From the NCBI RefSeq assembly GCF_006345805.1, contig NC_043012.1, positions 53,692,001-53,756,000 on the forward strand: a stretch of DNA of 64,000 nucleotides. The letters run 5' to 3'. This document shows positions 1,323-63,662 of the stretch, in pieces. The notes under the pieces were generated by a model. The model made no database searches. It saw only the letters and a program-made list of their open reading frames with translations, and was not told where the DNA came from. Numbering within the stretch: position 1 is the stretch's first letter; the number at the start of each line of letters is the position of its first letter. The position numbers and the translations under genes were made by a program. The stretch is from Octopus sinensis (lineage: Eukaryota).

Positions 1323-2022
1323 GTAAGTTAAATTCTCAGCTTTGTTCATACATAATATTTAGGAGTCAACGGTCATCCAACAAAATGTCTGTTAATATGT
1401 ATATATTCTTTTAAAATATATATATATAACTATATATAAAACATGTATAAGCGTTATATATGTTCCATTGTTGGGATTATGGTTTGTCTATCACTTTTCT
1501 ATTCAGTTTAACCCCGTATTTGCTATGAAGGGGCTTTTCTTGAACATCGCTGTATCATGATCCGTCGCTGTTCCTGATTTAGTTTCGTTTTCAGTTGATT
1601 TACAGCTTTTATTGTTTCTTCTTTTACTTCTTACTTATGATGTACTTTGACATCATTTTTGTGTTTGTCAGCTTCGCTAAAAACTGAAAGCAGTTTTTTG
1701 TGTTGTTCGTGCTTTGTGGCTATTTGTATTAGTTTTCTTTGCTCGAGAAGTAGTAAATTCTGTAGTCCTATGGTTGTTATTTTGTAATAGTTTTCTTTTT
1801 GTATAAGAGATCTACCACATTCCATACATTGTATATCTTATCTTTCTATGTCATTATTTTTTCATATTTTCTGACTATTTTGATTATTTCATATACAGTC
1901 CAATTGAGAATATTGTAGCTGTAACTTATAACTGGGACGGCTAGAGTGTTGATACCTATTATCTTGTTTTCTCGCAAGGGGCTCTCTTGTCAGTATTAAT
2001 CTGATCGTCTATAGTTTTATTT

Positions 2023-2447
2023 GTGCGCGATGTGGTAATTTCATATCAAGATAAACTGTGCATGGCCTTGCAGATGGAACCCAGTTAGAATTTTCTTAAG
2101 CTAGAGTAGCCCATCCCAGTCAAAAGGTCCCCGAATAAGGTTTCTTTAAGGAACATGAACAAAACACCCTCGCCTCCAGAGGCGAATTATTCAAACACCA
2201 AATGACTCCTATCAACATATGCCTATGATGCTTTCCCAATACTTCTGCTCGTAATCAGAGATGCACTTATTGTCAGCCACTAAGGGACATGCCCAACTGG
2301 TTAAGGTCAAACAACTGACAAGTAATTTGTGGTATTGATCAGAATATTGGCTGTAGCCCATCTTTATACCAAGACAAAACAATGTACATAATAACACTTC
2401 GGATCAGTTAATATGAAAAGCCATGAAAGCCAGTGACTGGTACTGGA
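2023..2447 (-). mobile_element. Partial copy of the ~560-bp (AAT)n-associated element
   Basis: Aligns by eye to 50164-50719 and to the reverse complement of 16431-16992. Confidence 0.85.
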
Positions 2448-2450
2448 ACA

Positions 2451-2531
2451 GGTCCCTAAATATGAATATTTATAATTTTTCCTCATGAAACGAAGGTTTC
2501 TCTCCAAAAGTATCTGGAGATATTGGTGAAT
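2451..2531 (+). pseudogene. Degenerate duplicate of the 3' end of exon 3020-3379, including its donor site
   Basis: GGTCCCTAAATATG...TCTCTCCAAAAGTATCTGGAGATATTGGTGA versus GGGCCCTAAATATG...TCTCTCCAAAAGTATCTGGAGTTATCGGTGA at 3303-3383. Confidence 0.85.
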
Positions 2532-2550
2532 TTCTATATATTTTTCACTA

Positions 2551-2958
2551 TTACTCTTTTACTCTTTTACTTGTTTCAATCATTTGACTGCGGCCATACT
2601 GGAGCACCGCCTTTAGTCGAGCAAATCGACCCCGGGACTTATTCTTTGTAAATCCAGTACTTATTCTATCGGTCTCTTTTGCCGAATCGCTAAGTGACGG
2701 GGACGTAAACACACATCAGCATCGGTTGTCAAGCAATGCTAGGGGGACAAATACAGACACACAAACACACACACACACATATATATACATATATACGACA
2801 GGCTTTTTTCCGTTTCCGTTTACCAAATCCACTCACAAGGCTTTGGTCGGCCCGAGGCTATAGCAGAAGACACTTGCCCAAGATGCCACGCAATGGGATT
2901 GAACCCAGAACCATGTGGTTGGTTAGCAAGCTACTTACCACACAGCCACTCTTGCGCC
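2551..2958 (-). mobile_element. tRNA-derived SINE family 1, full length
   Basis: Head GGCGCAAGAGTGGCTGTGTGG (A box), GGTTCAATCCC (B box), internal (TG)n, tail GGCGGTGCTCCAGTATGGCCGCAGTCAAATGATTGAAACAAGTAAAAGAG. Confidence 0.9.
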
Positions 2959-3019
2959 TATTGTTAATATTATTATTATTATTGTTGATATAAATATTTT
3001 ATCTTTTTTCTCTCAACAG

Positions 3020-3379
3020 AAATCAATGTGACGGCGAAAATTATAGAAGGTACAGGAAGTTATAAGCCCGGTCGTCCAAACAGAACATACATCGGTAAAG
3101 TTTATATTAAAACTGCCAATATAGAAATAATGATAGCAACACACCAAATAGTATTCAACGGTAAACGCCTGATTTGGAAACATGAAACAGATATCGCCTT
3201 TGCTGGAGCATCCTGCGAAGTGAATGGAAAAGGGAGGTTTGTGGAAATAACAATTAATCCTGGTTTAACGTTTCTTATCAGACGGGACTTATACGCACCT
3301 ATGGGCCCTAAATATGGTTATTTAGATTTCTTCCTCATGAACGACGATGGATTCTCTCCAAAAGTATCTGGAGTTATCG
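3020..3379 (+). CDS. ITIH-like gene A exon, C-terminal domain (QINVTAKIIEG...YLDFFLMNDDGFSPKVSGVIG)
   Basis: ctcaacAG acceptor, G|gtgagt donor, 360 nt, phase 1-1; resembles the ITIH 'LGFY..D...FS..VHGLLGQF' segment. Confidence 0.88.
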
Positions 3380-3453
3380 GTGAGTTGCTTCGTATTCTTC
3401 TTCATGATTATTATTATTGTTGTTGTTGTTGTTGTTGTTATCATCATTATTAT

Positions 3454-3811
3454 TGAGTGAGTGAGAGAACAGTGCATGCCATCACAGTGCCTCTGGGGTA
3501 AAACATACGAAGACCAGTATACCCATCATGACTACCCGTCTGATAAGGGTACACTAGGCACATGCATCACAACCATATGTGAGCGACATGGTGATCTCAT
3601 ATCAAGATAAACAGCGCATGACCTTGCAGGTGGGGCCCAGTTAGAATTTTCTTCTGGTCGAGTAATCCATCCCGCTCAAAAGGTCCCTGAACAAGGGTTG
3701 TTTAAGGATGTTGAACGAAAGACCCATGTTTCCAAAGATGAATTATTCAAACCCCCAAAGAATTCCTCTCAACATATGGCTATCATGCTACCCCAACTAC
3801 TTCTGCTAGTG

Positions 3812-3868
<57 letters not shown>

Positions 3869-3872
3869 GTTG

Positions 3873-3912
<40 letters not shown>

Positions 3913-3920
3913 GCTGTTGG

Positions 3921-3957
<37 letters not shown>

Positions 3958-4550
3958 ATTATTATTATTATCATTATTATTATTATCATTATTATTATCA
4001 TTATTATCATTATTGAGGCGGAGAGCTGTGGATGCCATCAAAGAGACATTGGGGTACAAATATAGAAAGCCTAGTATACCCATCATGACTACACGTCTAA
4101 TAAGGTTACACCAGGTACATACATCACAACCATATGTGGCCGACATAGTGTTCTCATATCAAGAGAAACAACGCATGAGCTTGCAGGTAGGGTCGAGTTA
4201 GTGTTTTCTTCATGAGGAGTATCACATCCCACTCAAAAGGTCCCTGAACAAGGGTAGTTTAAGGATATGGAACGAACCACCGCTCTTTACAAAAGGGAAT
4301 TATTCAAACCCCAAAGAATCCCTCTCAACATATGGCTATGATGCTCCCCAACTACTTCCGTTCGTGATCAGGGACGCACATATCTTCAGCCACTAAGGAA
4401 CATACGCAACTGGTTAAGGGCAAACAACTGACAAGCAAACATGTGATATTCAGCAGAACATTTGTCGTAGCCCAACTATTATACCAGGACAAATCATGTA
4501 CATGATAACAATTTACATCAGCTAAGAGCAGAAGCCCTGACAGCCAGTGC
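3454..4550 (-). mobile_element. Two tandem copies (3454-3812 partial; 4014-4550) of the (AAT)n-associated element, separated by ATT/GTT microsatellite
   Basis: Both begin TGAG(T/G)..GAGAG..GTG.ATGCCATCA and align with the other copies. Confidence 0.85.
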
Positions 4551-16366: not shown

Positions 16367-16430
<64 letters not shown>

Positions 16431-16431
<1 letters not shown>

Positions 16432-16991
16432 GCCCTGATGCAGTACCAGGCAGTGGCTCTCATGGCTTCTGATCTTAACTGATTGGAAGTGTTATCATGT
16501 ACATTGTTTTGTCTTGGTATAAAAGATGGGCTACAGCAAATATTCTGCTCAATACCACAGATTTGCTTGTCAGTTGTTTGACCTTAACCAGTCGAGCATG
16601 TCCCTTAGTGGCTGACGATATGTGCATCTCTGATCACGAGCAGAAGTAGTGGGGGAGCATCATAGCCATGTGTTGAGAGGGATTCTTTGGGGTTTGAATA
16701 GTTCACCTCTGGAAACATGGGTGTGGTTCTTTCAACATCCTTAACAACAACCTTATTCAGGGACCGTTTGAGCGGGATGGGCTACTCAACCTGAAGAAGA
16801 AAATTCTAACTGGGCCCCACCTGCAAGGTCATGTGCTGTTTATCTTGATATGAGATCACCATGTCGCGCACATATGGTTGTGATGCATGTGCCTGGTGTA
16901 CCTTTATCAGACGGGTAGTCATGATGGGTATATTGGGCTTCGTATATTTTACCCCAGTGTCACTTTTATGGCATGAACTGCTCTCTCACTC

Positions 16992-17052
<61 letters not shown>

Positions 17053-17607
17053 GCCCTGATGCAGTACCAGGCAGTGGCTCTCCTTGCTTCTGATCTTAAC
17101 TGATTGGAAGTGTTATCATGTACATTGTTTTGTCTTGGTATAAAAGATGGGCTACAGTAAATATTCTGCTCAGTACCACAGATTTGCTTGTCAGTTGTTT
17201 GACTTTAACCAGTTGAGCATGTCCCTTAGTGGCTGACGATTTGTGCATCTCTGATCAGGAGCAGAAGTAGTGGGGGAGCGTCATAGCCATGTGTTGATAG
17301 GGATTCTTTGGGGTTTGAATAATTCACCTCTGGAAACATGGGTGTTTCGCTCAACATCCTTAAACAACCCTTATTCAAGGACCTTTCGAGTGGGATGGGT
17401 TACTCGACCTGAAGAAAATTCTAACTGAGCCCCACCTGCAAGGTCATGTGCTGTTTATTTTGATATGAGATCACCATGTCGCGCACATATGTTTGTGATG
17501 CATGTGCCTAGTGTACCCTTATCAGACGGGTAGTCATGATGGGTATACTGGGCTTCGTATATTTTACCCCAGTGTCACTTTGATGGCATGCACTGCTCTC
17601 TCACTCA
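16431..17607 (+). mobile_element. Head-to-tail dimer (16431-16992, 17052-17607) of the ~560-bp (AAT)n-associated element
   Basis: Both run TGCCCTGATGCAGTACCAGGCAGTGGCTCTC ... CTGCTCTCTCACTCA, each flanked by (AAT)n; strand inferred from the (AAT)n tail. Confidence 0.92.
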
Positions 17608-18894
17608 ATAATAATAATAATAATAATAATAATAATTATAATAATAATGCGTGATTTAATGCCTATTTTGCTGCTCTATTTTGCACGTATGACAACCATC
17701 TCAATGACTGAAACACGTGCTTTCTCGTCAACACGTGCTTTCACACAGACAAAAAAAGTCCTCATGTTTAGCTTGTTACCATGGAAATAGGCATGAATGT
17801 ACCTGTGGCTTACGATTGGCTAAATTCACCCAAAATATTCAAACGTTATTTATTGATTTATCGCGAAAATGATTTTCATGGCATTCATTAGCACGTAAAC
17901 GTATATCTTTACACTGAATATGAAATCAATTCGAACAGAAATTGAAGTGGTTGAAAATTGGCAGCCAATCAGAAAAGATCCGTCATCTATGGTGGTGACT
18001 CTGATTCGGACTGGAAACTATTTTTACGTGGTTGAGCAATGTCTTTGAAATTGAAACGTCTTAGCATAGTGAGTGTGATTGATTGTGTGGTCTGTATGCT
18101 TTTTTGGCTATGTCAGAATCGAAGGCAGGAAGCTGAAATCAATAGCAAAAACTAAAATCAATGTCTACACAAGAGACATATGAGCTATGAGTGAACTTTG
18201 GCATCTCAATAATATATTGTCGGTTTATTATTTCTCACACACATGCAGGCACAAACGCATACACCTATACACAAACAAACAGAATACACTCACTCAAACG
18301 CTTATACATATACACACACGTGTGTGTGCATGTGTGTACATACATACATACATACATACATACATACATACATACATACATACATACATACATACGTACG
18401 TACATACGTACATTCGTATGCGCACATCTCATAAGGTGGCGAAGTCAAAGAATGCCCAGTCAATTAGAATAAAGAGATCAAAGATAAGTTTGAGAGAGAA
18501 TAATCGTTTAATCCATAACTGATAGACGGACAGAGTATAATTTGGTTCACCAATTGCTCTTTGGAACATCTGAAGTGTAAAAGATATGAAACAGTGGATC
18601 TCCATGATATGCGATGGTAATGCTATGACACACCTCCTCGTTTTAACCTAACAAGAAAATTTATGTAAAAAGTTAAAATAAATGCAAGTAACTGCATTTA
18701 CTATATATATATATATATATAATATATATATATAATATATATATATATAACAAAGTTAAAGTTTTTATTTTTCATCCCCTTCGAAAATTGCGCTTAAATG
18801 TGGTTTTGGTCGTTTTGACTGCTTCTTCTAGCGAGTAAAATTCCTGCTAAATGGTAGTTTCTTTTGTTTTTAAATGTACACTATTTTATATTGA

Positions 18895-22563: not shown

Positions 22564-23006
22564 GGATCTTTTCGGTTTGAACGGCAGTTTTTTAAATAAT
22601 TTCCACGTAACTAAACACTTTTAAACTTCGTATACTGGTAGAATGTGTTTATAAAACATCTTTTTCTCTTGGCTTTATTGAGAAAATTCTATAGTGTGCA
22701 AGATATTTATTGTTTTTTTTCTTCAATTTCTGCAATTTCAACCAATCGATGATGTCTATTGAAGTGAAAACATTCTGTACCGTATGAAAATATCCCTCGT
22801 TTAAGAAACAGATTGGGTTTATTTACATTTGTGAAGAAAAAAAGATACCCTTCCCCCACCTCTAACCCTAACCCTAACTAACCCTAACTCTAACCCTAAC
22901 CCTGAAATAGATTGAAATGCAATAGATCGATCCTAGGGACATAATTATGAGTGACATTTTCATATGATACCGCTAGAAAAAACTGCCGTTCAAACCGAAA
23001 AGATCC
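22564..23006 (+). mobile_element. MITE with ~29-bp TIRs, 8-bp TSD (GCAGGCTG/GTAGGCTG) and internal (CCCTAA)n; Merlin-like
   Basis: GGATCTTTTCGGTTTGAACGGCAGTTTTT ... AAAAACTGCCGTTCAAACCGAAAAGATCC. Confidence 0.9.
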
Positions 23007-23741
23007 GTAGGCTGAGTTTTAAGGTTACTAAAGGGGGATTACTTTTTTTTTTTTCAATTATTTTTCTGACCCTCAATTTTTAACCCATACTCCGGGTGTA
23101 ATTAAGGGAAATAACAGTGTAATATATTCATAATAGAGTTACGTCCCTGTGAAACCGTAACTAGACTTCAGCCCGTGTTAAGTTTATCAAAATTAGGCCA
23201 CAGAAACTGAAGTCAACGTTGCCTGACACAACACAGATGCCAAGTACGCAAGGGGAATAAGGAAGCTGAGTTGACAACTAAACAACACAAAGTTGGATAC
23301 ATAACTACAGACCCGAACTTCTGCACATAGAAGAAGAGATATAAGTACTTTGAGATATTTTAGAAAATAAGAACACATAAGAAATAAGAACTAGTGAAAT
23401 GTCAGAGTAAACAACCAAAACTTGCTCAATAGATACGAGTTGATATTTTTGTTTTTCATCCAGAAAAGTAAATAACTAAGTTCTAGGAATATAGAACTGG
23501 ATGCTATTCGTTACACCACTTACACCAGAATTTAAAATTCCACAGCTGGGAATTAGTAATAAGCAACGTTTAATAATAGTAATGTGTAATAATCGTTAAG
23601 CATATGTAGAAATGTAGACAAACCGGCCTGGATTTTTTTTGTTACGATGTGCCACGTTCCGAGTTCAAATGATGTTAGGATCAACTTGTTTTCGTTTTTC
23701 TTTTTCTTATGTTGTTATAGTATGTATTCCTTCAGTTTTAT

Positions 23742-24157
23742 GTATCTTTTCGGTTTGAACGGCAGTTTTTTCTAGCGGTGTCATATGAAATTTTCACCCA
23801 TAATTATGACCCTAGTATCGATCTATTGCATTTCAATCTCTTTTAGGGTTACGGTTAGGGGTGGGGGGAAGGGTATCTTTTTTTCTTCACAAATGTAAAT
23901 AAACCCAATCTGTTTCTTAAACGAGGGACATATTCATACGGCACATAATGTTTTTACCTCAATAGACGTCATTGATTGTTGAAATTGCAGAAATTGAAGA
24001 AAAACAACAACAAATATCTTACAAACTATAGAATTTTCTCAATAAAGCCAAGAGAAAAAGATGTTTTATAAACACATTCTACCAGTATACGAAGTTTAAA
24101 AGTGTTTAGTTGCGTGGAAATTATTTTAAAAAACTGCCGTTCAAACCGAAAAGATCC
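23742..24157 (-). mobile_element. Same MITE, inverted, flanked by a 19-bp duplication
   Basis: TIRs present; TGTATTCCTTCAGTTTTAT at 23723-23741 and 24158-24176. Confidence 0.9.
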
Positions 24158-24860: not shown

Positions 24861-25287
24861 ATGTATGTATGTATATATGTGTGTGTGTATGTATGTATAT
24901 GTATGTGTGTATGTGTTTATATGTATGTGTGTGTATGTGTGTGTGGTATATGTATACACACGCACACACACATGTAATGAAACACTCCAACGTTGTTGCT
25001 TACTTAGGAAATTTATGCGTAGGTGTGGCTGTGTGGTAAGTAGCTTGCTTACCTCTGTCGTGGATAGACGTTTTTTTTTTTTTTTTTTTGGCAGTGAGTC
25101 AAACGTTTTGTTGAAGGTTGGATAATTTTTCTGTTGGAATTGTTGTTTATTGTTGAATATTTTCGAACTGCTGATCATTGTCGAACTTTTAAACTTTGAA
25201 AACTGTTGTGCTTTTCCCCGGTGACGGGAGAAAGTAATTGTTGAAATATTGAACTTATTAATATTATTAATATTGAACTTATTAAAG

Positions 25288-25655
25288 CCGTTGTAGGCTT
25301 TATTGTCGTGCCCCACCTATGCAGCGGGGGATTTGAATTGTTATCCTCATTAAGAGGGAAAAAATAATATAGGTTTCCCGTTTTGAGGGATAATCAATTT
25401 ATTATTGCATGACAAATTAAAGTTTAGCCGTTGTAGGCTCTATTGTGACACCCGCCCCTAGCGTGGGTGAGATTTGAACTGTTGTCCTCGTTGTGAGGAA
25501 AAAAATATTATAGGTTTCCCGTTTTGGGGGAATCTGTATTTTTATTATTGTGTGGAAAAAAATTAATTTCGAACGTTGTAGGGGTGGGATTTGAAGTGTT
25601 GTCCTCGTTGAGAGAAAAAAAAAGTGAAAAATTATAGGTTTCCCTTTTTCTGGGA
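25288..25655 (+). repeat. Three ~140-bp tandem monomers in the LINE 5'UTR
   Basis: Repeated CGTTGTAGG...GATTTGAA.TGTT.TCCTC...TATAGGTTTCCC. Confidence 0.85.
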
Positions 25656-25724
25656 TTAAATTGTGTATAAATTTATTCCGAATGAATATGTCGGTCGAAG
25701 TAATTCAAGAAACAAACCAGCTGC

Positions 25725-26392
25725 ATGAGCCAGCAAAAAGTTCGCGGCAGTAGTCGCTGTATCGTGTAGAAATGTAGTAATACAAACGGAGAAGCTCTCC
25801 GAGCTTTTTGAGAAAATGAAAGAGGAGGGTGGGGTTATAAAGATCTCACCCTCCTCTAGTGCTGAAAATATGAAGAGAAGGATGAACGTACTGTCCTTCA
25901 TCGAAAAAATTCAAGCACTTCGAAAAGGCCATGCACACACCGGTTTCAACAGAAACAAATGCACCCATCCCCTCTGAAGTAACAACTCCTCTGGAAGACA
26001 TCATGGAGGTGACCGAGGGGGAGTTCAAGACACCCAGGAAAAAGAGAACGCTTGCACCTTCCCCATCCATATCCCCCACAAAAAAGAAGAAAAATAAAAC
26101 ACCGCAGAAAAAAAAATTTCCCGCTCCACTGTCTCAGAAGAGAAAATAAAAAAGAAAAATAGACGGAACAAAAACCCTGGTAAAATTTGATACTGGGGAT
26201 AAATATATCATGGACACGTTAAAGAACCATCACATTGTGGAACTGTTGCAGCGGCCAGAAGGCACGGAAGAGAGATGTGCCTGGATACCTGAAAAACTGT
26301 ATAATGAAATGAAGGGTAGGCATCCGAGAACCATCACGAACATCTCGGACCTTCCGCGGTATTTGAAGGAGTTTTTGGAGAAGCAGGAGTAA
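25725..26392 (+). pseudogene. LINE ORF1 remnant (frameshifted, basic/Pro-rich)
   Basis: Broken ORFs 25931-26149 and 26210-26392 between the 5'UTR and ORF2. Confidence 0.5.
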
Positions 26393-26486
26393 AGGACTGC
26401 CTCACGTGTGGTGAGGTCAGCCTAGCATCACCAATAAAAGAAAAAGTCAAAGAGTAAGTAGAACCCTTGCTTTTCTTTTGTTTAAA

Positions 26487-29400
26487 ATGACTGCACTTAA
26501 CCTTGGGTGTTTGAATGTGCGTGGTCTGAGCTCGAAGTGGAAGCAAGCTTGTTTCCTCGACGACCTCAGATCACACGATATGCATGTGATAGTTGCTACA
26601 GAGACCTTCTACAAGCCTTCTCACCTCTCCTGAATGACTATGCGACAATCCTGTCACCAAGCCGGACCGGAGGGCGAGTGGGTGTAGTAGTAATGGTTCG
26701 AAAATGCTTGGCTCTGCAGACAAGTACAGTCTATATAGACCCAGAAGGTGGGCTGGTCGTCCTTGATGTGACATACAGCATTAAGGCCTTCAGGTTGATC
26801 GGGATCTATGCACCTCGTGCTAGAGGATTTCAAACTGATTTTTATCGACGCCCAGAGAACTCTCTCGTGCCGTCGAAGTCATTAGTGGTGTTAGGTGACT
26901 ATTACGCTACCGTTGACGCACGCATCGATAGCGTTGGCTCGATCTATAGGAAAGTAAACTCACGTCTCGTAGATCTGCTCAAGCGTTTTAACCTGGCAGA
27001 TCGTTACAGACTTGACACTCCGAACGTCTCAGAGTGGACTTGGATGAGTGGCGACGGCAGGGTCAAGTCCTATTTAGATAGGATAGTGATAAGAACTGGA
27101 GATAAGTCTAGTTTTAGCTGTCCACAGCTTGTCCAAGTAGCTTACACTGACCATAGAATGGCTAAGTGTAGACTGGACATAGATAGTACAGTTAAAATAG
27201 GATCCAGCAACTTGAAGCTGAACAAGTCTATTTTGACTTGCGAGGCATACAGTAGCCGGATTGAGGAATTAGTACAGAGGGCGTTAACCAGGGCGGTGGT
27301 TAATAACCGATGGTGGTTCGCCCTCAAGAGAGCTATTCGTTTTGAGTCTATTAGGTTTAGATGTCAGCTAAGACTAGATAAGACCAGAATTGAAGGGCAA
27401 CTAGTTAAGGACCTACAGGAGGCGTCGAAGTTGGGCTCTGCATCTCACATTTTGGCAGCGAGAATGGCCTTGGACCGTCACCTCAAAGCTAAACATGAGA
27501 GGTGCAGAGTTCGAGCTGAAGTGCGAGCATAGGACCGTGAGGGAATTAATGTTGCCGGATGGGCCCGTACGGTAGAAACCCAGCGTGGCAATGATGCCAC
27601 AATTAGGTCTCTCGTGGATGAAATGAGTGTTCGGTCGATGGACGGGACGAGATGTGTGAGACGATTCACAAGCACTTTACCGAGTTGTTTATGAATGGCG
27701 GGGCACTGGATCATGGCGAGGCTCTTAGGGACTTCCTGTCTGGCGGCCGCGTCTCTCGGCACGAGAGGCTAAGTGCTGTGAAGCGCCAATCACGGCCGAG
27801 CAGGTGAATAAAGTACTGGGCGAATGCCCCGGGGAGAAGTCGCCGGGTCTCGATGGTCTGCCTTACGAATATTACAAAAGTATTCCAGACTTGTTCGGGG
27901 ACCTGCTGGACAGCATCTACGCCAATTGGCAGCAGAATGGGAGAATTCCCAAGTCTGCGAGCGGAGGGGTGGTGACGTCGCTCAGGAAGAACCTGAGGGA
28001 CGAAATAGGGAACTTCAGGCCCATAACTCTGCTGAACACAGAGTTAAAGATTTTGGCCAAGGTGCTAGCGAAAAGGTTGGCGCGGGTCATCGACAAACTT
28101 GTCGGGGAAGCGCAAACGTGCGCTATCCCGGGCAGGACGATCCACGACAATCTCTACCTTATACGCTACTCCATAGAGAGGGTGGGGAAGCTTTCTGGCG
28201 CAGGGGGGGGGCACCGGTACATTTAGACCAATCTAAGGCATTCGATAGGGTCGACCATCGGTACTTGGCGGCGGTCTTCGAGAAGGCTGGCCTGGGGCCG
28301 ACCTTCCGCGGTTGGATTGCTGCGTTGTACAGCGACATCGAATCCGTCGTAAAAGTGAATGGTTTCATTTCGAAGCCATTCAGGATCGAGCGCTCAATGC
28401 GTCAGGGGTATCCTCTGTCCCCGCCGTAGGACGGAAGGTACTGTTAAGCTGCTTCGGGCCAGGCCTCCAGATAGAGACAAACTGGAATCAGGTGGCCAGC
28501 AAGGTGACTGCTCTAACCCAGACCTGGTCTGGGCGGGAGTTATACTTGCTAGGAAAGGCGGAGGTGGTGCAGCTGTTCATAGCATCGGTTATACCTACCG
28601 TGTGACCGTGGTGCCTTGCCCCGACTTGTGACTGAACAAGTTGGAGAGAATCCTTTTCCGCTTTTTGTGGAAGGAAGGAAAGCCACTCGTGAAGCGCTAT
28701 GTCTGCTGCCAGAAACCGCTAAAGGGTGGGCTTGGGATGCCTTGACTGAGGATACGAAAGTTCGCGTTAAGGTTGAGACACCTCTGGCTTTACCTGGATG
28801 GAGAGCAGGTGTGGTCATCGCATGTTCGGTTCTACCTTCCGCAATTAACTTCCTTAACGGACATTGGTAATTGGATCAAGCAAGACCTCGGCATGGGAAT
28901 GGCAATTGGAATGCCGCCAGGCACTTCAGCTACTCTACTGGGCGGGCCACGCCAGCAATAGGAGTTCCACCGCGGATTTCTATAGTGGGTTAGTGGAGGT
29001 AAAGTCTGAAGACGCCTCGGGGGAGACCCTGGGCTACGATGAAAATCAGTTAATCGGCCTTTTCCGGAGAACTATCGGCCCGATGTATCTGGACAATTAC
29101 CGGAAATCCCTGACTTGGCAGTACTTCCGTGCGGCATTACCTGTTCGTGATAAATTGTCAAGGCACGGAAGTGCCGTCTCGCCGACATGTCCGAGGTGCG
29201 GGCAGGACAGGGAAACTGTCTTGCACGCATTTGTGGAATATCTGGAATTAACGAGACTGATAGTTTTCGCAGAGCAACAGTTGCCATCGATGGAAAGAGT
29301 ACAGCTATCAGCTGAATCTATCATCGAGATTGTGCCACCTCCTTCCCTTAACAGGGATTGAAGGCTTGCTTTTTCTGCGTAGTAGCCATACTGAAAGAAA

Positions 29401-29555
29401 CAGTATGGAAGACGCGTGTGGGAGGCATAGTGTCGGGTACCTTTCTATCCGGCCAGGGGTTGGTTAGCTTTTTTAGTTACCACATCAGTAGTAAGATCAG
29501 GCTGGAGAAGATGGAGCCTGTGGCGATGAAGCTGGGAGTGTTCGGCACCGGGTAA
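26487..29555 (+). pseudogene. LINE ORF2 (APE endonuclease + reverse transcriptase + CxxC-H knuckle), disrupted; the YADD region is deleted
   Basis: MTALNLGCLNVRGL, IYAP, VLGDY, SYLDRI, TDH, KSPGLDGLP, NFRPITLLNTELKILAKVLA.RL, LDQSKAFDRVDH, RQGYPLSP then a jump to post-RT sequence near 28425; CPRCGQDRETVLH. Confidence 0.9.
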
Positions 29556-29973
29556 GTGGAAGCCAAAAACAGGGAAGAAAATGCAAGGGGTCTACCCTGG
29601 TGGTCGGATGCCTATCCTTCACAGAAGCCATTACAAATTTTATTTCTAATGAGCGACGCTTAAGTCGAAAATTATAAATATATTCATTAAATTATAGTTT
29701 TTTTTTTAATTGTAAATATTTAATCGCTACAGCTACTTCACCCTTTTATGTTTGTCTGTTCTTGTTCGTCCGCTCTTTGTATTGCCTTCATGGCAAATAC
29801 TTATGAAATAAATTAGCTTGCTTACGAACCACATGGTTCTGGGTTCAGTCCCACTGCGTGACACCTTGGGAAAGTGTCTTCTACTATAGCCTCCGGCCGA
29901 CCAAAATTTTGTGAGTGGATTTGGTAGAAGGAAACTGAAAGAAGCCCGTCGAATACATGTATGTATGTATGTA

Positions 29974-30004
<31 letters not shown>

Positions 30005-31419
30005 GTGTATACGTTTGTGTGTCTGTGTTTGTTCCCCAACATCGCTTGACAACCGATGCTGGTGTGTTTACGTCCCCGTACCTTAGCGGTTCGGCAAAAT
30101 GAGACCGATAGACTAAGTCCTAGGCTTACAAAGAATAAGTCCTGGGGTCTATTTGCTCGACTAAAGGCGGTGTTTCAGCATGGCCACAGTCAAATGACTG
30201 AAACGAGTAAAAGAGCAAAACTTTGAAAATATTCCTGCTACACTTCTACAATTGTTTTCTATGCTCTCTCCGTGCGTTATTATAACTTCTGACTGATAAT
30301 AAACGAAAGCGAGAAAATCGAATGAGCGTCGGAGTAAAACTCCATCTGGAATAAATAAATTAATAAATTCTACTAACTACATGTATACTCTCCCATGTAT
30401 AGACAAATCCACACATTCAACAGATTGATATATCTATAATTATATCTGGGGATTGCAGTTAGAAAGGTACAAGTCTGGGTAAGGTTGTTTATGGAAAACC
30501 AGCAGTCGCCCATGCATGCTAGCTCTTCTCCACGTCACCGATGTTATCCGAGGGAAAGGCAAAGACTGATACAGCTTGCCACCTGTGGCGTCACAACCCA
30601 TTTCCACAGCTCAGTGAACTGGAGCAACGTGAAATAAAGTATCTTACTCGAGAACACAACTCACAGCCCGGTCTGGGATACGAACTCACTACCTCAAGAT
30701 TATGAGCCTATATATATACACACACACACACACACAGAAAGAGAGAGCAAGAGGCGAGCTACTATTAGTTTCTTGCCATGAAGACATAAGGTACGTTATC
30801 AAGACCTCTCTAGCTACGTGTTTCCCTGACAAGAAACCATTGATAGCTCTTATGTTCATACAGTGTACATCAAATGATATTTATCTCTCATTGGAAATGA
30901 GTACCTTTTTGTTGGTCTTACCTTAATAAAACTGTAACCCCCTCTCCCCCCCTCTCTCTCTGTAATCTGACTTTCTTCATAACACAAGCACAAAGTAGTT
31001 TGTTTTCTATACACAACTCCATTTACGAAATAAACATTCGTCCTCTAACGTAGATATGGTTTATAGGGGTAAATTTAAGACACTTAAATGAAGAAATACC
31101 GTTTTTAAACATTCAAATCCATCACTACCCACCTCATACGTGGGTGGCAATTATGGGGAATAACTATTTAACATATTCATTATAGAGTTATACCCCTTGT
31201 GAAGTATATCCGGCCTTACAGCTTAGCTGTTCCTTTTTTTGTTTTTTAATGTAATAAAATTAGGCTAAACAATTCCAAACGCTGCCAACCGACAGCGCAA
31301 TTGTCAAGCATGCTCGGGAAGCAAAAACGTTGAGAGAACTACTAAAGAAAACTAAGTTATATTCGTAGCTTTGAAACAGAACTGCTGTGCACAAAAGAAG
31401 AGACACACGCACTGACATG

Positions 31420-41603: not shown

Positions 41604-41901
41604 TATATATATAGGATTATGAATTGTTACAATTGAATAACTGCTTTAGTGTGTTTCGTGTGTTTTGGGGCGGGTAGTATGAGTCTTCCACGCTGCAATC
41701 GTTTTACTTCCAGCATACACTCTCAGATCAAACAACTTGCCTGGCGATTGCACCTCCGAAAATTATTACACCCGTCTACAATGTCGAATTTACTCAACAA
41801 AACGTCAATACTCTCCAATAAACCTACAAATGGAGCTGGGCCTCATTAAGACTTTTGAATCGAACATTCCTGATTCTCTTGGCATCCCTGCAACTGATTG
41901 T

Positions 41902-42341
41902 GGATCTTTTCGGTTTGAACGGCAGTTTTTTAAAATAATTTCCACGTAACTAAACACTTTTAAACTTCGTATACTAGTAGAATGCGTTTATAAAACATCT
42001 TTTTCTCTTAGCTCTATTGAGAACATTCTATCGTTTGTAAGATATTTGTTGTTGTTTTTTCTTCAATTTTTGCAGTGACGTCTATTGAGTTAAAAAGCAT
42101 TCTGTGCCGTATGAATATGTCCCTCGTTTAAGAAACAGATTGGGTTTATTTACATTTCTGAAGAAAAAAGATGCCCTTCCCCCTACCCCTAACCCTAACC
42201 CCAACTAGCCCTAACTAACCCTAACTAACCTTAACCCTAAAACAGATTGAAATGCAATAGATCGATACTAGGGTCATAATTATGGGGGACAATTTCATAT
42301 GACACTGCTAGAAAAAAGTGCCGTTCAAACCGAAAAGATCC
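41902..42341 (+). mobile_element. Telomere-repeat MITE, perfect 8-bp TSD CTGATTGT
   Basis: TIRs; TSD at 41894-41901 and 42342-42349. Confidence 0.92.

Positions 42342-48222: not shown

Positions 48223-48270
<48 letters not shown>
47521..48270. repeat. Tandem duplication, ~350-bp unit bounded by (ATT)n
   Basis: Unique part 47661-47874 reads identical to 48009-48222. Confidence 0.9.
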
Positions 48271-48274
<4 letters not shown>

Positions 48275-48813
48275 GAGTGAGAGCGCAGTGCATGCCGTCA
48301 AAAGGACAGTGGGCTAAAGCTTACGAAGCCCAGTATACCCATCATGAGTACCGGTGTGATGAAGGTACGCCAGGCACATGTATCACAACCATATGTGCCC
48401 GATATGGCGCTCTCATATCAAGATATAGAGCGCATTACGTTTCAGGTTAGACCCATTTAGAATTTTCTTCAGGTTGAGTGGCCCATCCCGCTCAAAAGGG
48501 TCCCTGAATTAGGGTTAAAGGATGATATACGAAACAACCATGCTTCCAGAGGTGAATTATTCCAACCCCAAAGAATTCCTCTGGACACATAGCTATAATG
48601 TTCCCAACTACTTCTGCTCGTGATCAAAGACGCACATATCTTCAGCCACTAAGGGACATGCTCAACTACTTAAGGTCAAGCAAATAACAAGCAAATCTGT
48701 AGTACTGAACAGAGTATTTGCTGTAGCCCATTTTTACACCAAGACAAAGCATGTACATATATTTCCAATCAATGAAGATTAGAAGCCATTGGAACCAATG
48801 CCTGGTATTGCAT
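48275..48813 (-). mobile_element. (AAT)n-associated ~560-bp element
   Basis: Aligns with the other copies; (ATT)n on both flanks. Confidence 0.88.
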
Positions 48814-48917: not shown

Positions 48918-50163
48918 TAATAATAATAATTTATGAATTTATTTCTTTTCATAAATACGTATATGTTATTGTTTTAGTTCAAAGCTTAATTCTCGGTTGT
49001 TGGCAATCTCTAAATGCAATATTGAAATATTAAGTGCAAGAATTAATAGAAAATATGTACGACGAGATATATCATTATCATTATGAAAAAAAATCATAAA
49101 TATATTATCTCAACCAAACATTTCTGCGTAGAAAATTGTATGTTTTAACACAACACTCCTTTCCTCGTTTAGATCAGTTTATAATGCATTAGTTATAATT
49201 GACGGTATTAACTATATTGCCTAACGCTTTTCTCTTCATTAAATGCCAAAAATTATATGGTGTCAGTAAAGAATACATTTTCTTCATATTTTAAGGCACG
49301 GATTGAAATAACTTTACATTTTTATACATTATATAATTATCGGTTGCGCTGGTTAAAGATTTTCTAAAATAAAATCGCGTTTTTTTTTTTGTTATTTTAT
49401 TTTTTTGTAATTCCTCATGCCCAGTAAGGGTTACGATTCTATAAAACTATTCGAAAATCGATTAAACAAACTTCAAGTCGGCTGACATTTTTTTGCATTA
49501 AAAAAAAGCAACGCAATTCTAAGCTAATAATTAATGATTATAGAGGAAAAGAGTGATGATTCGGCATCACTCCAAATGCCATAGAGTATTTAGCTATTAA
49601 ATTCATGTTTTGTTTTCATGGATACAAATGGCGTTCAATCATTATATTTTCCCTCTACTAATGTTTTTGATTGTATCAGTATAAAGAAAGAACAGTACCT
49701 TTATTCTTGTTTAATACTGTGGTATCTAGATTGAAATTTCAGCAGATAGACCTTAAAAGATAATGACAAAAGATGAAATATACTGTTTGAAACAAATAAA
49801 TTCGGCCTGTCCTCCTTTCTTATTCTGGTTTGCTTGTATATAATAACTGCACCTTTACACGAAAAGCTATTCTCTTATGAAGCCTCCTTGACTTTAGAGA
49901 CAGACATTATAATTTTGAGCGCAGACAACTAAATACTACAGCAACGGGGCTTTGGAATAAACAGTACTCCGTAGAACCCAATTAGTAATCAAGTTTCATG
50001 GAACCTACCTATCTTACAGAGGATGGTTACTATTGCAGTAAGCAGAACTTTCAGAATGAAGGTGAATTTTGACACTAATTGCTCATTTTGCTAATTCTTT
50101 GTAATGATTGCTCTAAAGCTCTCTGTTCTAATTCCTAAGGTATTTTCGATGTTATTATTATTA

Positions 50164-50719
50164 TGTGAGAGAGCAGTGCATGCCATCAAAGTGACACTGG
50201 GGTAAAATATACGACGCCCAGTATACCCATCATGACTACCCGTCTGATAAGGGTACACTAGGCACATGCATCATAACCATATGTGCGCGATATGGTGATC
50301 TCATATCAAGATAAACAGCGCATGACCTTGCAGGTGGGGCCCAGTTAGAATTTTCTTCTGACCGAGTAACCCATCCCACTCAAAAGGTCCTTGAATAATG
50401 GTTGTTTAAAGGTGTTGAACGAAACACCCATGTTTCCAGAGGTAACTTATTCAAACTCCAAAGAATCCCTCTCAACCCATGGCTATGATGCTCCCCCACT
50501 ACATCTGCTCGTGCTCAGAGATGCACATATCGTCAGCCACTAATAAGGGACATGGTCAACCGGTTAAGATCAAATAACTAACAAGCAAACTGTGGTATTG
50601 AGCAGAATATTTGCTGTAGCCCATCTTTTATACCAAGACAAAATAATGTACATGATAACACTTCCAATCAATTAAGATCAGAAGCGATGAAAGCCACTGC
50701 CTGGTACTACATTAGGGCA
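50164..50719 (-). mobile_element. (AAT)n-associated ~560-bp element, full length
   Basis: TTATTAT|GTGAGAGAGCAGTGCATGCC...CATTAGGGCA|TTTATTATT. Confidence 0.9.
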
Positions 50720-51625
50720 TTTATTATTATTATTGTTCAGGTCACTGCTTGGAATCGAAGTCGGAATCTTGGGGTTAGTAGGCCGAGCTCTTAACCACTA
50801 CGCGATATGCCCGTGGAATGAGAACCCAGGTTCGAAATTTCCCCAAGACATTCGAAGAAGGCTGAAGGGTATATCCACCGAAATGTTGTGTTAACAACAA
50901 ACAATATGAGGACAGATATCTGTTGAATGTAAATAATGTAAATAATGCAGAAATATTTTTAACGATAGAAACAGTTATAATTTTAGGATGATTTGAGCTT
51001 TTACTTACGTATTTAAGGTTATCATTGGGTTTGTGGAACAGTTGATATTCTTTCGTTAGATAAGCACGAGTTTCTCGTTGCGCATATTAATGCTTTATCA
51101 GATAAAATTGGGTCAATCGATGTATATTAAGTAGATATGTCTAATTTTATGAATTTAGTGTGTTTTTTATCTCTAATATAAGTAAACCGATCTATAACTT
51201 CATACAAATTGGGCCATAATTTAACTCTCAATTTCTAAGTTTAGGTACGTGTTTTTCAATAATAAACTTACTAATTCTGCCTACATCCGATTTTGAAGGC
51301 CATATAAACCTAGCCAAAAGATTGGTAGTCACGTTAGAATTATGGTCCTTCAGATGAATTCTAGGAGTTCTATGAAAGTAAGGTTCTGTTCGTCTTCTAA
51401 ATGCAATCTCTATATGTTTTTTTTTTTGCTTTTTTTTACCTGTAAATTTCCATTTTGTAGGATATTTTTAGAAGTAACCTTATAATTTTTCAGAATTTCT
51501 TTCCTCATTAAAGAGGAATATAGATTATTGTCAATAAAAACCGGAAATGTATTCCAAGAGTTTTTAAACATACACTCACACACACTTACACACATACATA
51601 CACTCACACACACATACAAACACGC

Positions 51626-61939: not shown

Positions 61940-62357
61940 GGATCTTTTCGGTTTGAACGGCAGTTTTTTAATATAATTTCCACATAACTAAACACTTTTA
62001 AACTTCGTATACTGGTAAAATGTGTTTGTAAAACATCTTTTTCTCTTGGCTTTATTGAGAAAATTCTATAGTTTGTAAGATATTTGTTTTTTTTTCCTTC
62101 AATTTCTGCAATTTCAACCAATCAATGGCGTCTATTGAGGTGAAAACATTCTGTGCCGTATGAATATGTCCCTCGTTTAAGAAACAGATTGGGTTTATTT
62201 ACATTTCAGAAGAAAAAAAAAGATACCCTTTCCCCCACCCCTAACCCTAACCCTAAAACAGATTGAAATGCAATAGATCGATACTAGGGTCATAATTATG
62301 GGTAACAATTTCATATGACATCGCTAGAAAGAACCGCCGTTCAAACCGAAAAGACCC
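61940..62357 (+). mobile_element. Telomere-repeat MITE, perfect 8-bp TSD GAATAATT
   Basis: TIRs; TSD at 61932-61939 and 62358-62365. Confidence 0.92.
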
Positions 62358-62469: not shown

Positions 62470-62542
62470 TCCTCGGTAGTATAGTGGTAAGTATCCCCCG
62501 CCTGTCACGCGGGAGACCGGGGTTCGATTCCCCACCGGGGTG
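62470..62542 (+). tRNA. tRNA-Asp(GTC), variant or pseudogene
   Basis: TCCTCGGTAGTATAGTGGTAAGTATCCCCCGCCTGTCACGCGGGAGACCGGGGTTCGATTCCCCACCGGGGTG, close to the eukaryotic tRNA-Asp consensus; extra C before the anticodon stem, C-A mismatch in the T stem, U1-U72 mismatch; TTTT at 62561. Confidence 0.85.
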
Positions 62543-62567: not shown

Positions 62568-63662
62568 GGCGCAGGAGTGGCTGTGTGGCAAACTACTTCA
62601 CCCCATATGTTTGTCTGTCCTTGTATGTCCCCCTCTATGTAACGCCTTAATGGTGAATTTTCATGAAATAAATTAGCTTGCTAACCTCTGCCGTAGAAGG
62701 ACGTTTTTTTTTTGGCGGTGAGTCAAACGTTTTGTTGCACGTTGATAATGTTTCTATTGTTGAATGTTTATTGTTGAATATTTTCGAAATGTTGAACATT
62801 GTTGAACTTTGAAAGCTTTTGTGCTTTTTCCCGGTGACGGGAGAAAGTAATTATTGAAATATTGAAATTATTAATATTGAACTTATTAAAGCCGTTCTAG
62901 GCTTTATTGTCGTGAAGCGGGGATGGCATTTGAACTGTCATCCCCATTAAAAGGAAAAAAATATTATAGGCTTCCCGTTTTTTGGGATAAGCAATTTATT
63001 ATTGCGAGAAAAATTACATTTTAGCCGTTGTAGGCTCTATTGTGGCATCCGCCACTAGTGTGGGCGAGATTTGAACTGTTGTCCTCGTTGTGAGGGACAA
63101 AAATATTATAGGCTTCCCGTTTTGTGGGATTCTATATTTTATTATTGTGTGAAAAAAAAATTGATTTCGAACGTTGTGGGCTTTGTTGCTACGTCTCGCC
63201 CACCAGTGGAGGTGAGATTTGAACTGTTGTCCTTATGGTGAGGAAAAAATATTATAGGTGGCCCGTTTTGGGGATTCTGTATTTTTATTATTGCGTGGAA
63301 AAAAAAATTAATTTCGAACGTTGTCGGCTCTGTTGCTACGTCTCACACCCCAGCAAGGGTGGGATTTGAACTGTTGTCCTCGTTAAGAGGAGAAAAAAAG
63401 GAAAAAATTATAGGTTTCCCTTTTTCTGTATATATATATATATATATATATGTGGATGTGTGTGTTTGTCCCCCTCAACATCGCCTGACAACCGATGCTG
63501 GTGTGTTTATGTTCCTGTAACCTAGCGGTTCGGCAAAAAGAGACCGATAGAATAAGTACTAGACTTACAAAGAATTAGTCCTGGGGTCGATTTGCTCGAC
63601 TAAAGGCGGTGCTCCAGCATGGCCGCAGTCAAATGACTGATACAAGTAAAAAAGTAAAAAGA
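62568..63662 (+). mobile_element. Composite: SINE1 head (62568-62588) + LINE 3' stub (~62593-62673) + target TAGCTTGCTAAC + LINE 5'UTR with 4 monomers (62686-63428) + SINE1 3' half (~63455-63662)
   Basis: Stub aligns to 29732-29813; 5'UTR aligns to 25053-25655. Confidence 0.9.

Follow-up and report, generated by a model that had tools for sequence, protein, structure and literature searches.

Tx1-Mar of crocodilians belongs to a group of APE-type LINEs whose preferred sites lie within other abundant mobile elements, and tandem copies of SINEU-3, which it mobilises, sandwich a target duplication and were read as sequential insertions (Kojima, 2015; PMC4494074). Both traits seem to recur in the octopod LINE described here, however the targets listed in that study are Mariner, Harbinger, piggyBac (Tx1D), LTR elements, microsatellites, satellites and snRNA or 5S genes, with no SINE head among them (PMC4494074). 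Tx1L of Xenopus laevis likewise aims a sequence-specific APE endonuclease at a non-autonomous element, Tx1D, but this target is a DNA transposon, and the specificity is biochemical for Tx1L whereas that of the octopus LINE is deduced from two loci (PMC4494074, PMC1950540). Double insertion is general in flies, as in the R1 array in Drosophila, and the resulting dimers can become arrays via unequal exchange (McGurk and Barbash; 10.1101/158386). As in the R1 double insertions, the octopus duplication keeps the target and an intact 3′ end is joined to the next copy; unlike in the fly double insertions, the short piece lies upstream and is without its own duplication (10.1101/158386). Pol III units are also targeted, by Dewa in the tRNA-Leu spacer and by Dada at the tRNA A box or anticodon; the sites of these two are tRNA genes or spacers, however, and Dada belongs to the DNA transposons (PMC3706591, PMC8869645). 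The mechanism is already described, from Tx1-type elements and double insertion, whereas the SINE head as a LINE target looks new: neither a SINE-head-targeting LINE nor a cephalopod Tx1 array was found in the literature searched, with Repbase reports, subscription papers and Kojima's supplementary target figures outside its scope.

The octopus SINEs OK and OR1 were reportedly described by Ohshima and Okada in 1994. OR2 comes from the same work (Ohshima and Okada, 1994, cited in PMC4758252), and SINEs cover about 12% of DNA in octopus genomes (PMC13282606). The host SINE treated here resembles OK, OR1 and OR2 in its tRNA-like head and high Octopus copy number, as compared by description only. 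If the LINE is SINE-specific, the targets of Tx1-type LINEs would extend to a SINE promoter, with one retrotransposon disabling another class. For annotation, chimeras of stub, duplication and UTR would then be stacked insertions and not subfamilies.

One insertion point in two SINE copies

The 64-kb stretch of octopus DNA analysed as a whole (the window) holds eight heads and ten tails of the host SINE, a dispersed short repeat with A- and B-box-like motifs (read from sequence), an internal microsatellite and a simple-repeat tail. All LINE sequence found in the window by blastn and tblastn sits at two of the eight heads, at the same base and in the same orientation in both, 4-5 bases behind the A-box-like motif and with the B-box-like motif on the other side (Table 1). 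Both occupied heads are of the TAGCTTGCT[AT]AC type (two of five), and none of the three heads of the [AG]AGC..CTTCC type is occupied. According to Kojima, a LINE is target-specific where more than 20% of a family's flanks are of one repeat type (PMC4494074); counted in the window only, both family loci lie in SINE heads (n = 2). The SINE target pattern had 0 matches in viral contigs, and the LINE 3′ junction pattern 0 matches in metagenome contigs.

Table 1. Parts of the two LINE-bearing SINE copies, in window positions
Feature	Position	Strand	Basis
SINE head, locus 1	25011..25040	+	head alignment
Left target-site duplication TAGCTTGCTTAC	25041..25052	+	sequence match to right copy
Decayed 5′-complete LINE, 4.76 kb	25053..29813	+	Pfam, tblastn, PDB matches
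Right target-site duplication TAGCTTGCTTAC	29814..29825	+	sequence match to left copy
Remaining locus 1 SINE: B-box-like GGTTCAGTCCC, microsatellite, tail	29826..30220	+	sequence, self-comparison
SINE head, locus 2	62568..62592	+	8-head junction alignment; end = start of target 12-mer in empty copies
A-box-like TGGCTGTGTGG within locus 2 SINE head	62578-62588	+	read off sequence
LINE 3′ end stub, 81 bp, terminus ATGAAATAAAT, without poly(A)	62593..62673	+	81% to full copy's 3′ end
Target-site copy TAGCTTGCTAAC, separating both LINE pieces	62674..62685	+	also in empty SINEs and flanking full copy
LINE 5′ UTR, CTCTG start, abrupt end	62686..63428	+	88-93% to 25053-25652
(TA)n run = SINE internal microsatellite; putative right breakpoint of ~4.3-kb deletion	63429..63451	+	sequence
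SINE 3′ half, locus 2	63452..63660 (end approximate)	+	84-87% to five other same-type tails

The 12-mer at these junctions is supported as a target-site duplication, as the preliminary description proposed: it flanks the full LINE copy and is ordinary SINE sequence in empty copies at 2941(-) and 4753(+), directly behind GTGTGGTAAG. Since the next SINE base is usually C, the target-site copy is perhaps 13 bp long and not 12. The duplication alleles of the two loci differ by one base (TTAC vs TAAC), both of them found in empty SINEs. ARAGORN and Rfam made no tRNA or Rfam call on the SINE heads in the window. Between a tRNA-Asp(GTC) gene at 62470-62542 and the locus 2 SINE head lie only 25 bases, and the D-loop of this gene has in common with the SINE the 10-mer GTGGTAAGTA, which spans the insertion boundary and may point either to a tRNA origin of the SINE or to a related target. 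The TAGC behind the presumed nick (25040/25041, 62673/62674) is also the tetramer with which 28S rDNA continues directly after the R2 site (PMC6530143), which is probably a coincidence.

The LINE of locus 1 has a repeat-bearing 5′ UTR, a short and broken ORF1 without significant match, and ORF2 pieces (about 26487-29510) in which an APE endonuclease, a reverse transcriptase (RT) and a zinc-binding domain follow in order with broken frames (PF03372, E 2e-5; PF00078, E 1.6e-6, which misses the curated cut-off as the domain is split; PF13966, E 1.5e-7). The RT segment matching P0008 residues ~651-746 is gone near 28430 (tblastn), and the best PDB matches are to human L1 ORF2p (E 8e-6). These domains, the target-site duplication and the lack of terminal repeats in a self-blast are the features of an APE-type non-LTR element of the L1 group. 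Among named proteins, the one closest to this LINE comes from Octopus bimaculoides (75%). In a FastTree tree of 53 rows, where the window ORF2 was entered in pieces with X at the breaks, the window LINE joins O. bimaculoides, two Argonauta and two further proteins (six rows, support 100), and this octopod group is sister to 15 rows, the joint 21-row group having an SH support of 100. An ESM Atlas search returned no clade name, and a search for 'longer' homologues returned 0. Judged by its architecture, the LINE likely belongs to the Tx1 clade, the tree being one without named Tx1 elements. An ORF1 CCHC zinc knuckle is a Tx1-clade feature, and such a knuckle was found in sister-clade ORF1.

At locus 2, the order of parts given in the preliminary description for 62568..63662, namely a SINE head, a LINE 3′ end, the 12-mer and a 5′ end starting with CTCTG, was found base by base. 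Its term 'the same LINE' holds for the family, not for identical copies (81-93%): over 80 aligned bases the stub agrees with the end of the 25-30 kb copy at 65, and the UTR behind it reaches 88-93% ungapped identity to 25053-25652. Internal UTR repeats of ~140 bp number four in locus 2 (markers at 62928, 63069, 63217 and 63364) and three in locus 1; the repeats, ~120-145 bp long at 25286-25657 and 62890-63428, resemble promoter monomers. Beyond the locus 2 SINE tail blastn found no resumption of LINE sequence up to 64000, and a separate SINE inserted into the locus 2 UTR was rejected on this ground.

The claim that both junction types match those of the 25-30 kb copy stood for the nucleotide, the 12-mer and the CTCTG start, whereas at the head/stub junction the target copy is missing. 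The target-site duplication lies inside the tandem junction, and the 8-head alignment places no 12-mer between the SINE head and the stub. There the head ends in GTGTGGCAAA, where empty SINE copies read GTGTGGTAAG, and the stub begins at the same SINE boundary where the 12-mer begins in empty copies. The tandem is without outer-end duplications, the one being absent at the head/stub junction and the right end deleted, and this weakens the claim of a textbook dimer at locus 2, but not the reading as site reuse.

Two further repeats share the window with these loci. A MITE-like element of ~420-450 bp with 30-bp terminal inverted repeats occurs in four copies that are 81-94% identical (22564-23007, 23745-24157, 41901-42341 and 61940-62357), one copy lying upstream of each LINE locus. 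A second dispersed family, 300-440 bp long with several copies at 82-95%, occupies 1945-4496, 16413-17648, 48223-48499 and 50141-50737.

Tandem arrays in a sister clade

Prokaryotic genomes scanned with the clade alignment gave 47 loci, 41 of them on contigs of one MAG (G001). Contigs C3-C19 of this bacterial MAG (L081-L119, L123, L127-L155) are microsatellite-rich animal-type DNA, a binning contamination. They contain intact young LINEs of the sister clade, arrayed head to tail; most units measure 6.4-6.8 kb, and a contig has up to 13 or more of them. The units end in a hairpin and RGAAATAAA without poly(A), five loci in the window's own ATGAAATAAA, and are separated by host-derived spacers of 11-18 bp. 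We mapped 65 distinct 3′ ends on 16 of the contigs: 61 run into spacer-type sequence and four enter host DNA (C5, C9, C17 and C19), and all four host-facing ends start with 11-18 bases matching the inner spacer of their own array. Among six array starts, the full spacer stands before C6, C17 and C18 and a partial match before C3, C4 and C19. Array C17 has its spacer at both ends, and the spacer of C18 also occurs within an uninterrupted copy of a host repeat. The reuse of a kept target put forward in the preliminary description is thereby seen as a habit of the sister clade.

Units of one array have coding DNA 99.6-100% identical, and the value falls to 93-98% from one subfamily to another (without the divergent C13), whereas the spacers vary far more, with five types among the five inner junctions of C19. 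Such variation inside arrays fits separate insertions; array C9 holds two identically truncated units, therefore duplication by exchange contributes as well. The uniformity of the arrays allows misassembly, so it is uncertain which left flank goes with which right flank. A 3′ stub is found at none of the six array starts, nor at 25053, which answers the possibility that it is a constant part of the 5′ end. Tandems that sandwich a kept target are thus a habit of this LINE lineage, unlike 5′ ends that carry a 3′ tag. The first unit of C18 (L133) carries the spacer motif of the C6/C10 subfamily in its 5′ end, which suggests that parts of former flanks accumulate in 5′ ends.

G001 lacks the octopus SINE head, its matches to the SINE being confined to the microsatellite part, and the sister target sites occupy no fixed position in a dispersed SINE-like repeat. 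ARAGORN found no tRNA near related LINEs in 86 distant loci or in 41 array loci, therefore tRNA-gene targeting is unsupported there. One region of the MAG (L138, C16:1-20000) has four tRNA-Ser(TGA) genes in an ~8-kb repeat unit, without this LINE. Metagenome relatives are distant (80 loci, 24-42% in the best segment), and a protein scan of viral contigs confirmed 0 of 91 candidates. In the limpet Patella caerulea, 11 near-identical ORF2 proteins (P0046 cluster) bear near-consecutive tags, SNE40_003393-003415, on one contig; judged by the tags only, a LINE array in tandem has probably been taken for genes in the annotation.

The sister clade also bears on the stub, which is a true LINE 3′ end because the sister units end in the same hairpin and RGAAATAAA, as the preliminary description had supposed. 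The last 80 bases of sister units align with it only loosely. The hairpin has z values of -2.3 in locus 1, -1.0 in the stub and -4.2 in a young sister unit, so the window hairpins, weak beside the young one, are only suggestive. Measured against locus 1, divergence is greater in the stub than in the UTR that follows it (15/80 vs 57/562 mismatches, Fisher p 0.035), a value weakened by the variation of 3′ hairpins among sister subfamilies. Two changes separate GTGTGGCAAA from the SINE head, but in sister elements the corresponding stretch of the 3′ UTR is TGTGGCTAGCTAG, therefore the head/stub junction could be a TGTGG microhomology join, made by 5′ truncation or by later trimming. Whichever way this junction arose, two LINE copies stood in tandem at locus 2.

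Probable site reuse and competing explanations

Two distinct SINE copies of the window hold an APE LINE (L1/Tx1 type) at one shared base, together with the duplication and, at locus 2, the tandem order. We consider it probable that the LINE recognises this site and duplicates 12-13 bases of it, and that a second copy reused the site at locus 2. The endonuclease would nick the bottom strand between GTGGTAAG and TAGCTTGC, that is between the A and B boxes of the SINE, reverse transcription would begin at the hairpin/AATAAA end of the LINE, and second-strand cleavage 12-13 bases downstream would yield the duplication; these steps are inferred. The second copy at the same nick of locus 2 would be either an 81-bp 5′-truncated piece without duplication or a longer copy trimmed at the TGTGG microhomology, and either insertion may have come first. 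A later deletion of ~4.3 kb (sized against locus 1) would have taken the body of the downstream copy, the right duplication and the SINE middle. Since the promoter boxes are split, the insertion would silence that SINE copy, and the LINE would itself parasitise a parasite and land in harmless DNA.

A random insertion would hit the site with a chance of 6e-5 (8 heads per 128,000 strand-bases), a window-level figure for a window selected for the pattern. That the two hosts are separate SINEs was upheld: their tails are 86% identical with one shared minority site, within the 79-91% range of tail-type copies among themselves, and do not group in a tree, though with low supports. The outer flanks differ as had been described, all four pairs scoring within the range of shuffled sequence (the score was reached in 57-124 of 200 shuffles). 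A segmental duplication of both loci was rejected by the unrelated flanks, the nearby upstream MITE being one of four copies in the window. Because the host SINEs are not sisters and their flanks unrelated, the site was most likely hit independently; against this, the UTR identity of 88-93% is near the tail identity, a figure that by itself is compatible with common descent. Specificity for the SINE site is thus likely, at n = 2 octopus loci, as are three insertion events in the window, a count that only donor transduction or exchange duplication lowers to two. The occupancy of two heads in eight cannot be typical of the genome: scaled to 2.8 Gb, it exceeds the 56 Mb covered by all L1-Tx1 families in O. 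vulgaris (PMC13282606 supplement), therefore local clustering or the selection of the window may lie behind the density.

Four other explanations were weighed. Drosophila HeT-A carries 5′ tags. In a comparable manner, locus 2 could be one insertion of a transcript that started within the 3′ end of a copy lying upstream in a tandem donor locus (5′ transduction), or of two RNAs linked through template jumping; the target would then have been reused elsewhere or never, leaving two events in the window. The head/stub junction without duplication speaks for it, as do the arrays of the clade, which are possible donors, and the sister unit of C18 with another subfamily's spacer inside its 5′ end; however the missing stub at 25053 and at all six sister array starts, and the greater divergence of the stub relative to the UTR, make it unlikely. 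It is also very unlikely that a single locus 2 element was duplicated by unequal exchange between its 12-mers and both copies then shortened by deletions. At least one large deletion did occur at locus 2, and the internally near-identical sister arrays with their identically truncated pair show a fitting pattern, but 12 bases are a short homology, the left breakpoint would be needed at the nick or within few bases of it, and the sister spacers vary far beyond the coding DNA.

Descent from one old SINE-LINE composite, copied as a unit by 3′/5′ transduction, conversion or small duplication and so without any SINE specificity, would suit two loci only 38 kb apart with similar UTR and SINE divergences; we regard it as very improbable in view of the single minority site common to the host tails and their separation in the tree (weak supports), the unrelated flanks and the different duplication alleles. 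Least plausible is an assembly chimera in part of locus 2, joined at the (TA)n run or the shared 12-mer, which the stop of the UTR exactly at the microsatellite would allow, as against 64 kb without any N, parts each 7-19% diverged from their locus 1 counterparts (so not a collapsed copy), and a tail type that, though the commonest, accompanies TAGCTTGCT[AT]AC heads at four other copies.

Target choice among sister subfamilies

The sister arrays are perhaps of larger value than the octopus loci, being young, intact and close relatives with unrelated targets; with them one could test directly whether an APE LINE owes its target to its protein or to flanking RNA, a question relevant to tools for site-specific gene insertion. 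Nine subfamilies have nine unrelated spacers, and the endonucleases of eight of the nine are 90-96% identical. The loop matching the L1 target-probing hairpin (mapped via the L1 ORF2p structural match; the loop itself is described in PMC1950540) is the same in seven of eight subfamilies. Among 240 endonuclease columns, four or more states occur at positions 63-64 alone, which read RA, NF, GT, NF, RT, HV, RT and RI in L084, L085, L086, L091, L094, L098, L100 and L114. A switch of these two residues could retarget the enzyme; NF and RT are each paired with two different spacers.

As an alternative to such a switch, and as a tentative and rather doubtful idea, the target may not be fixed at all: each subfamily would keep the site of its master copy, a read-through RNA that includes the downstream duplication priming only at matching DNA. 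A master in a single-copy site would then give rise to a tandem array, while an Octopus master in a SINE head would meet very many dispersed targets. For R2Ol, annealing of the 3′ flank lifted efficiency from 12% to 96-98% (PMC6530143). C9 and C19, which belong to one subfamily, lie in unrelated host flanks and have 11 of the first 12 bases in common.
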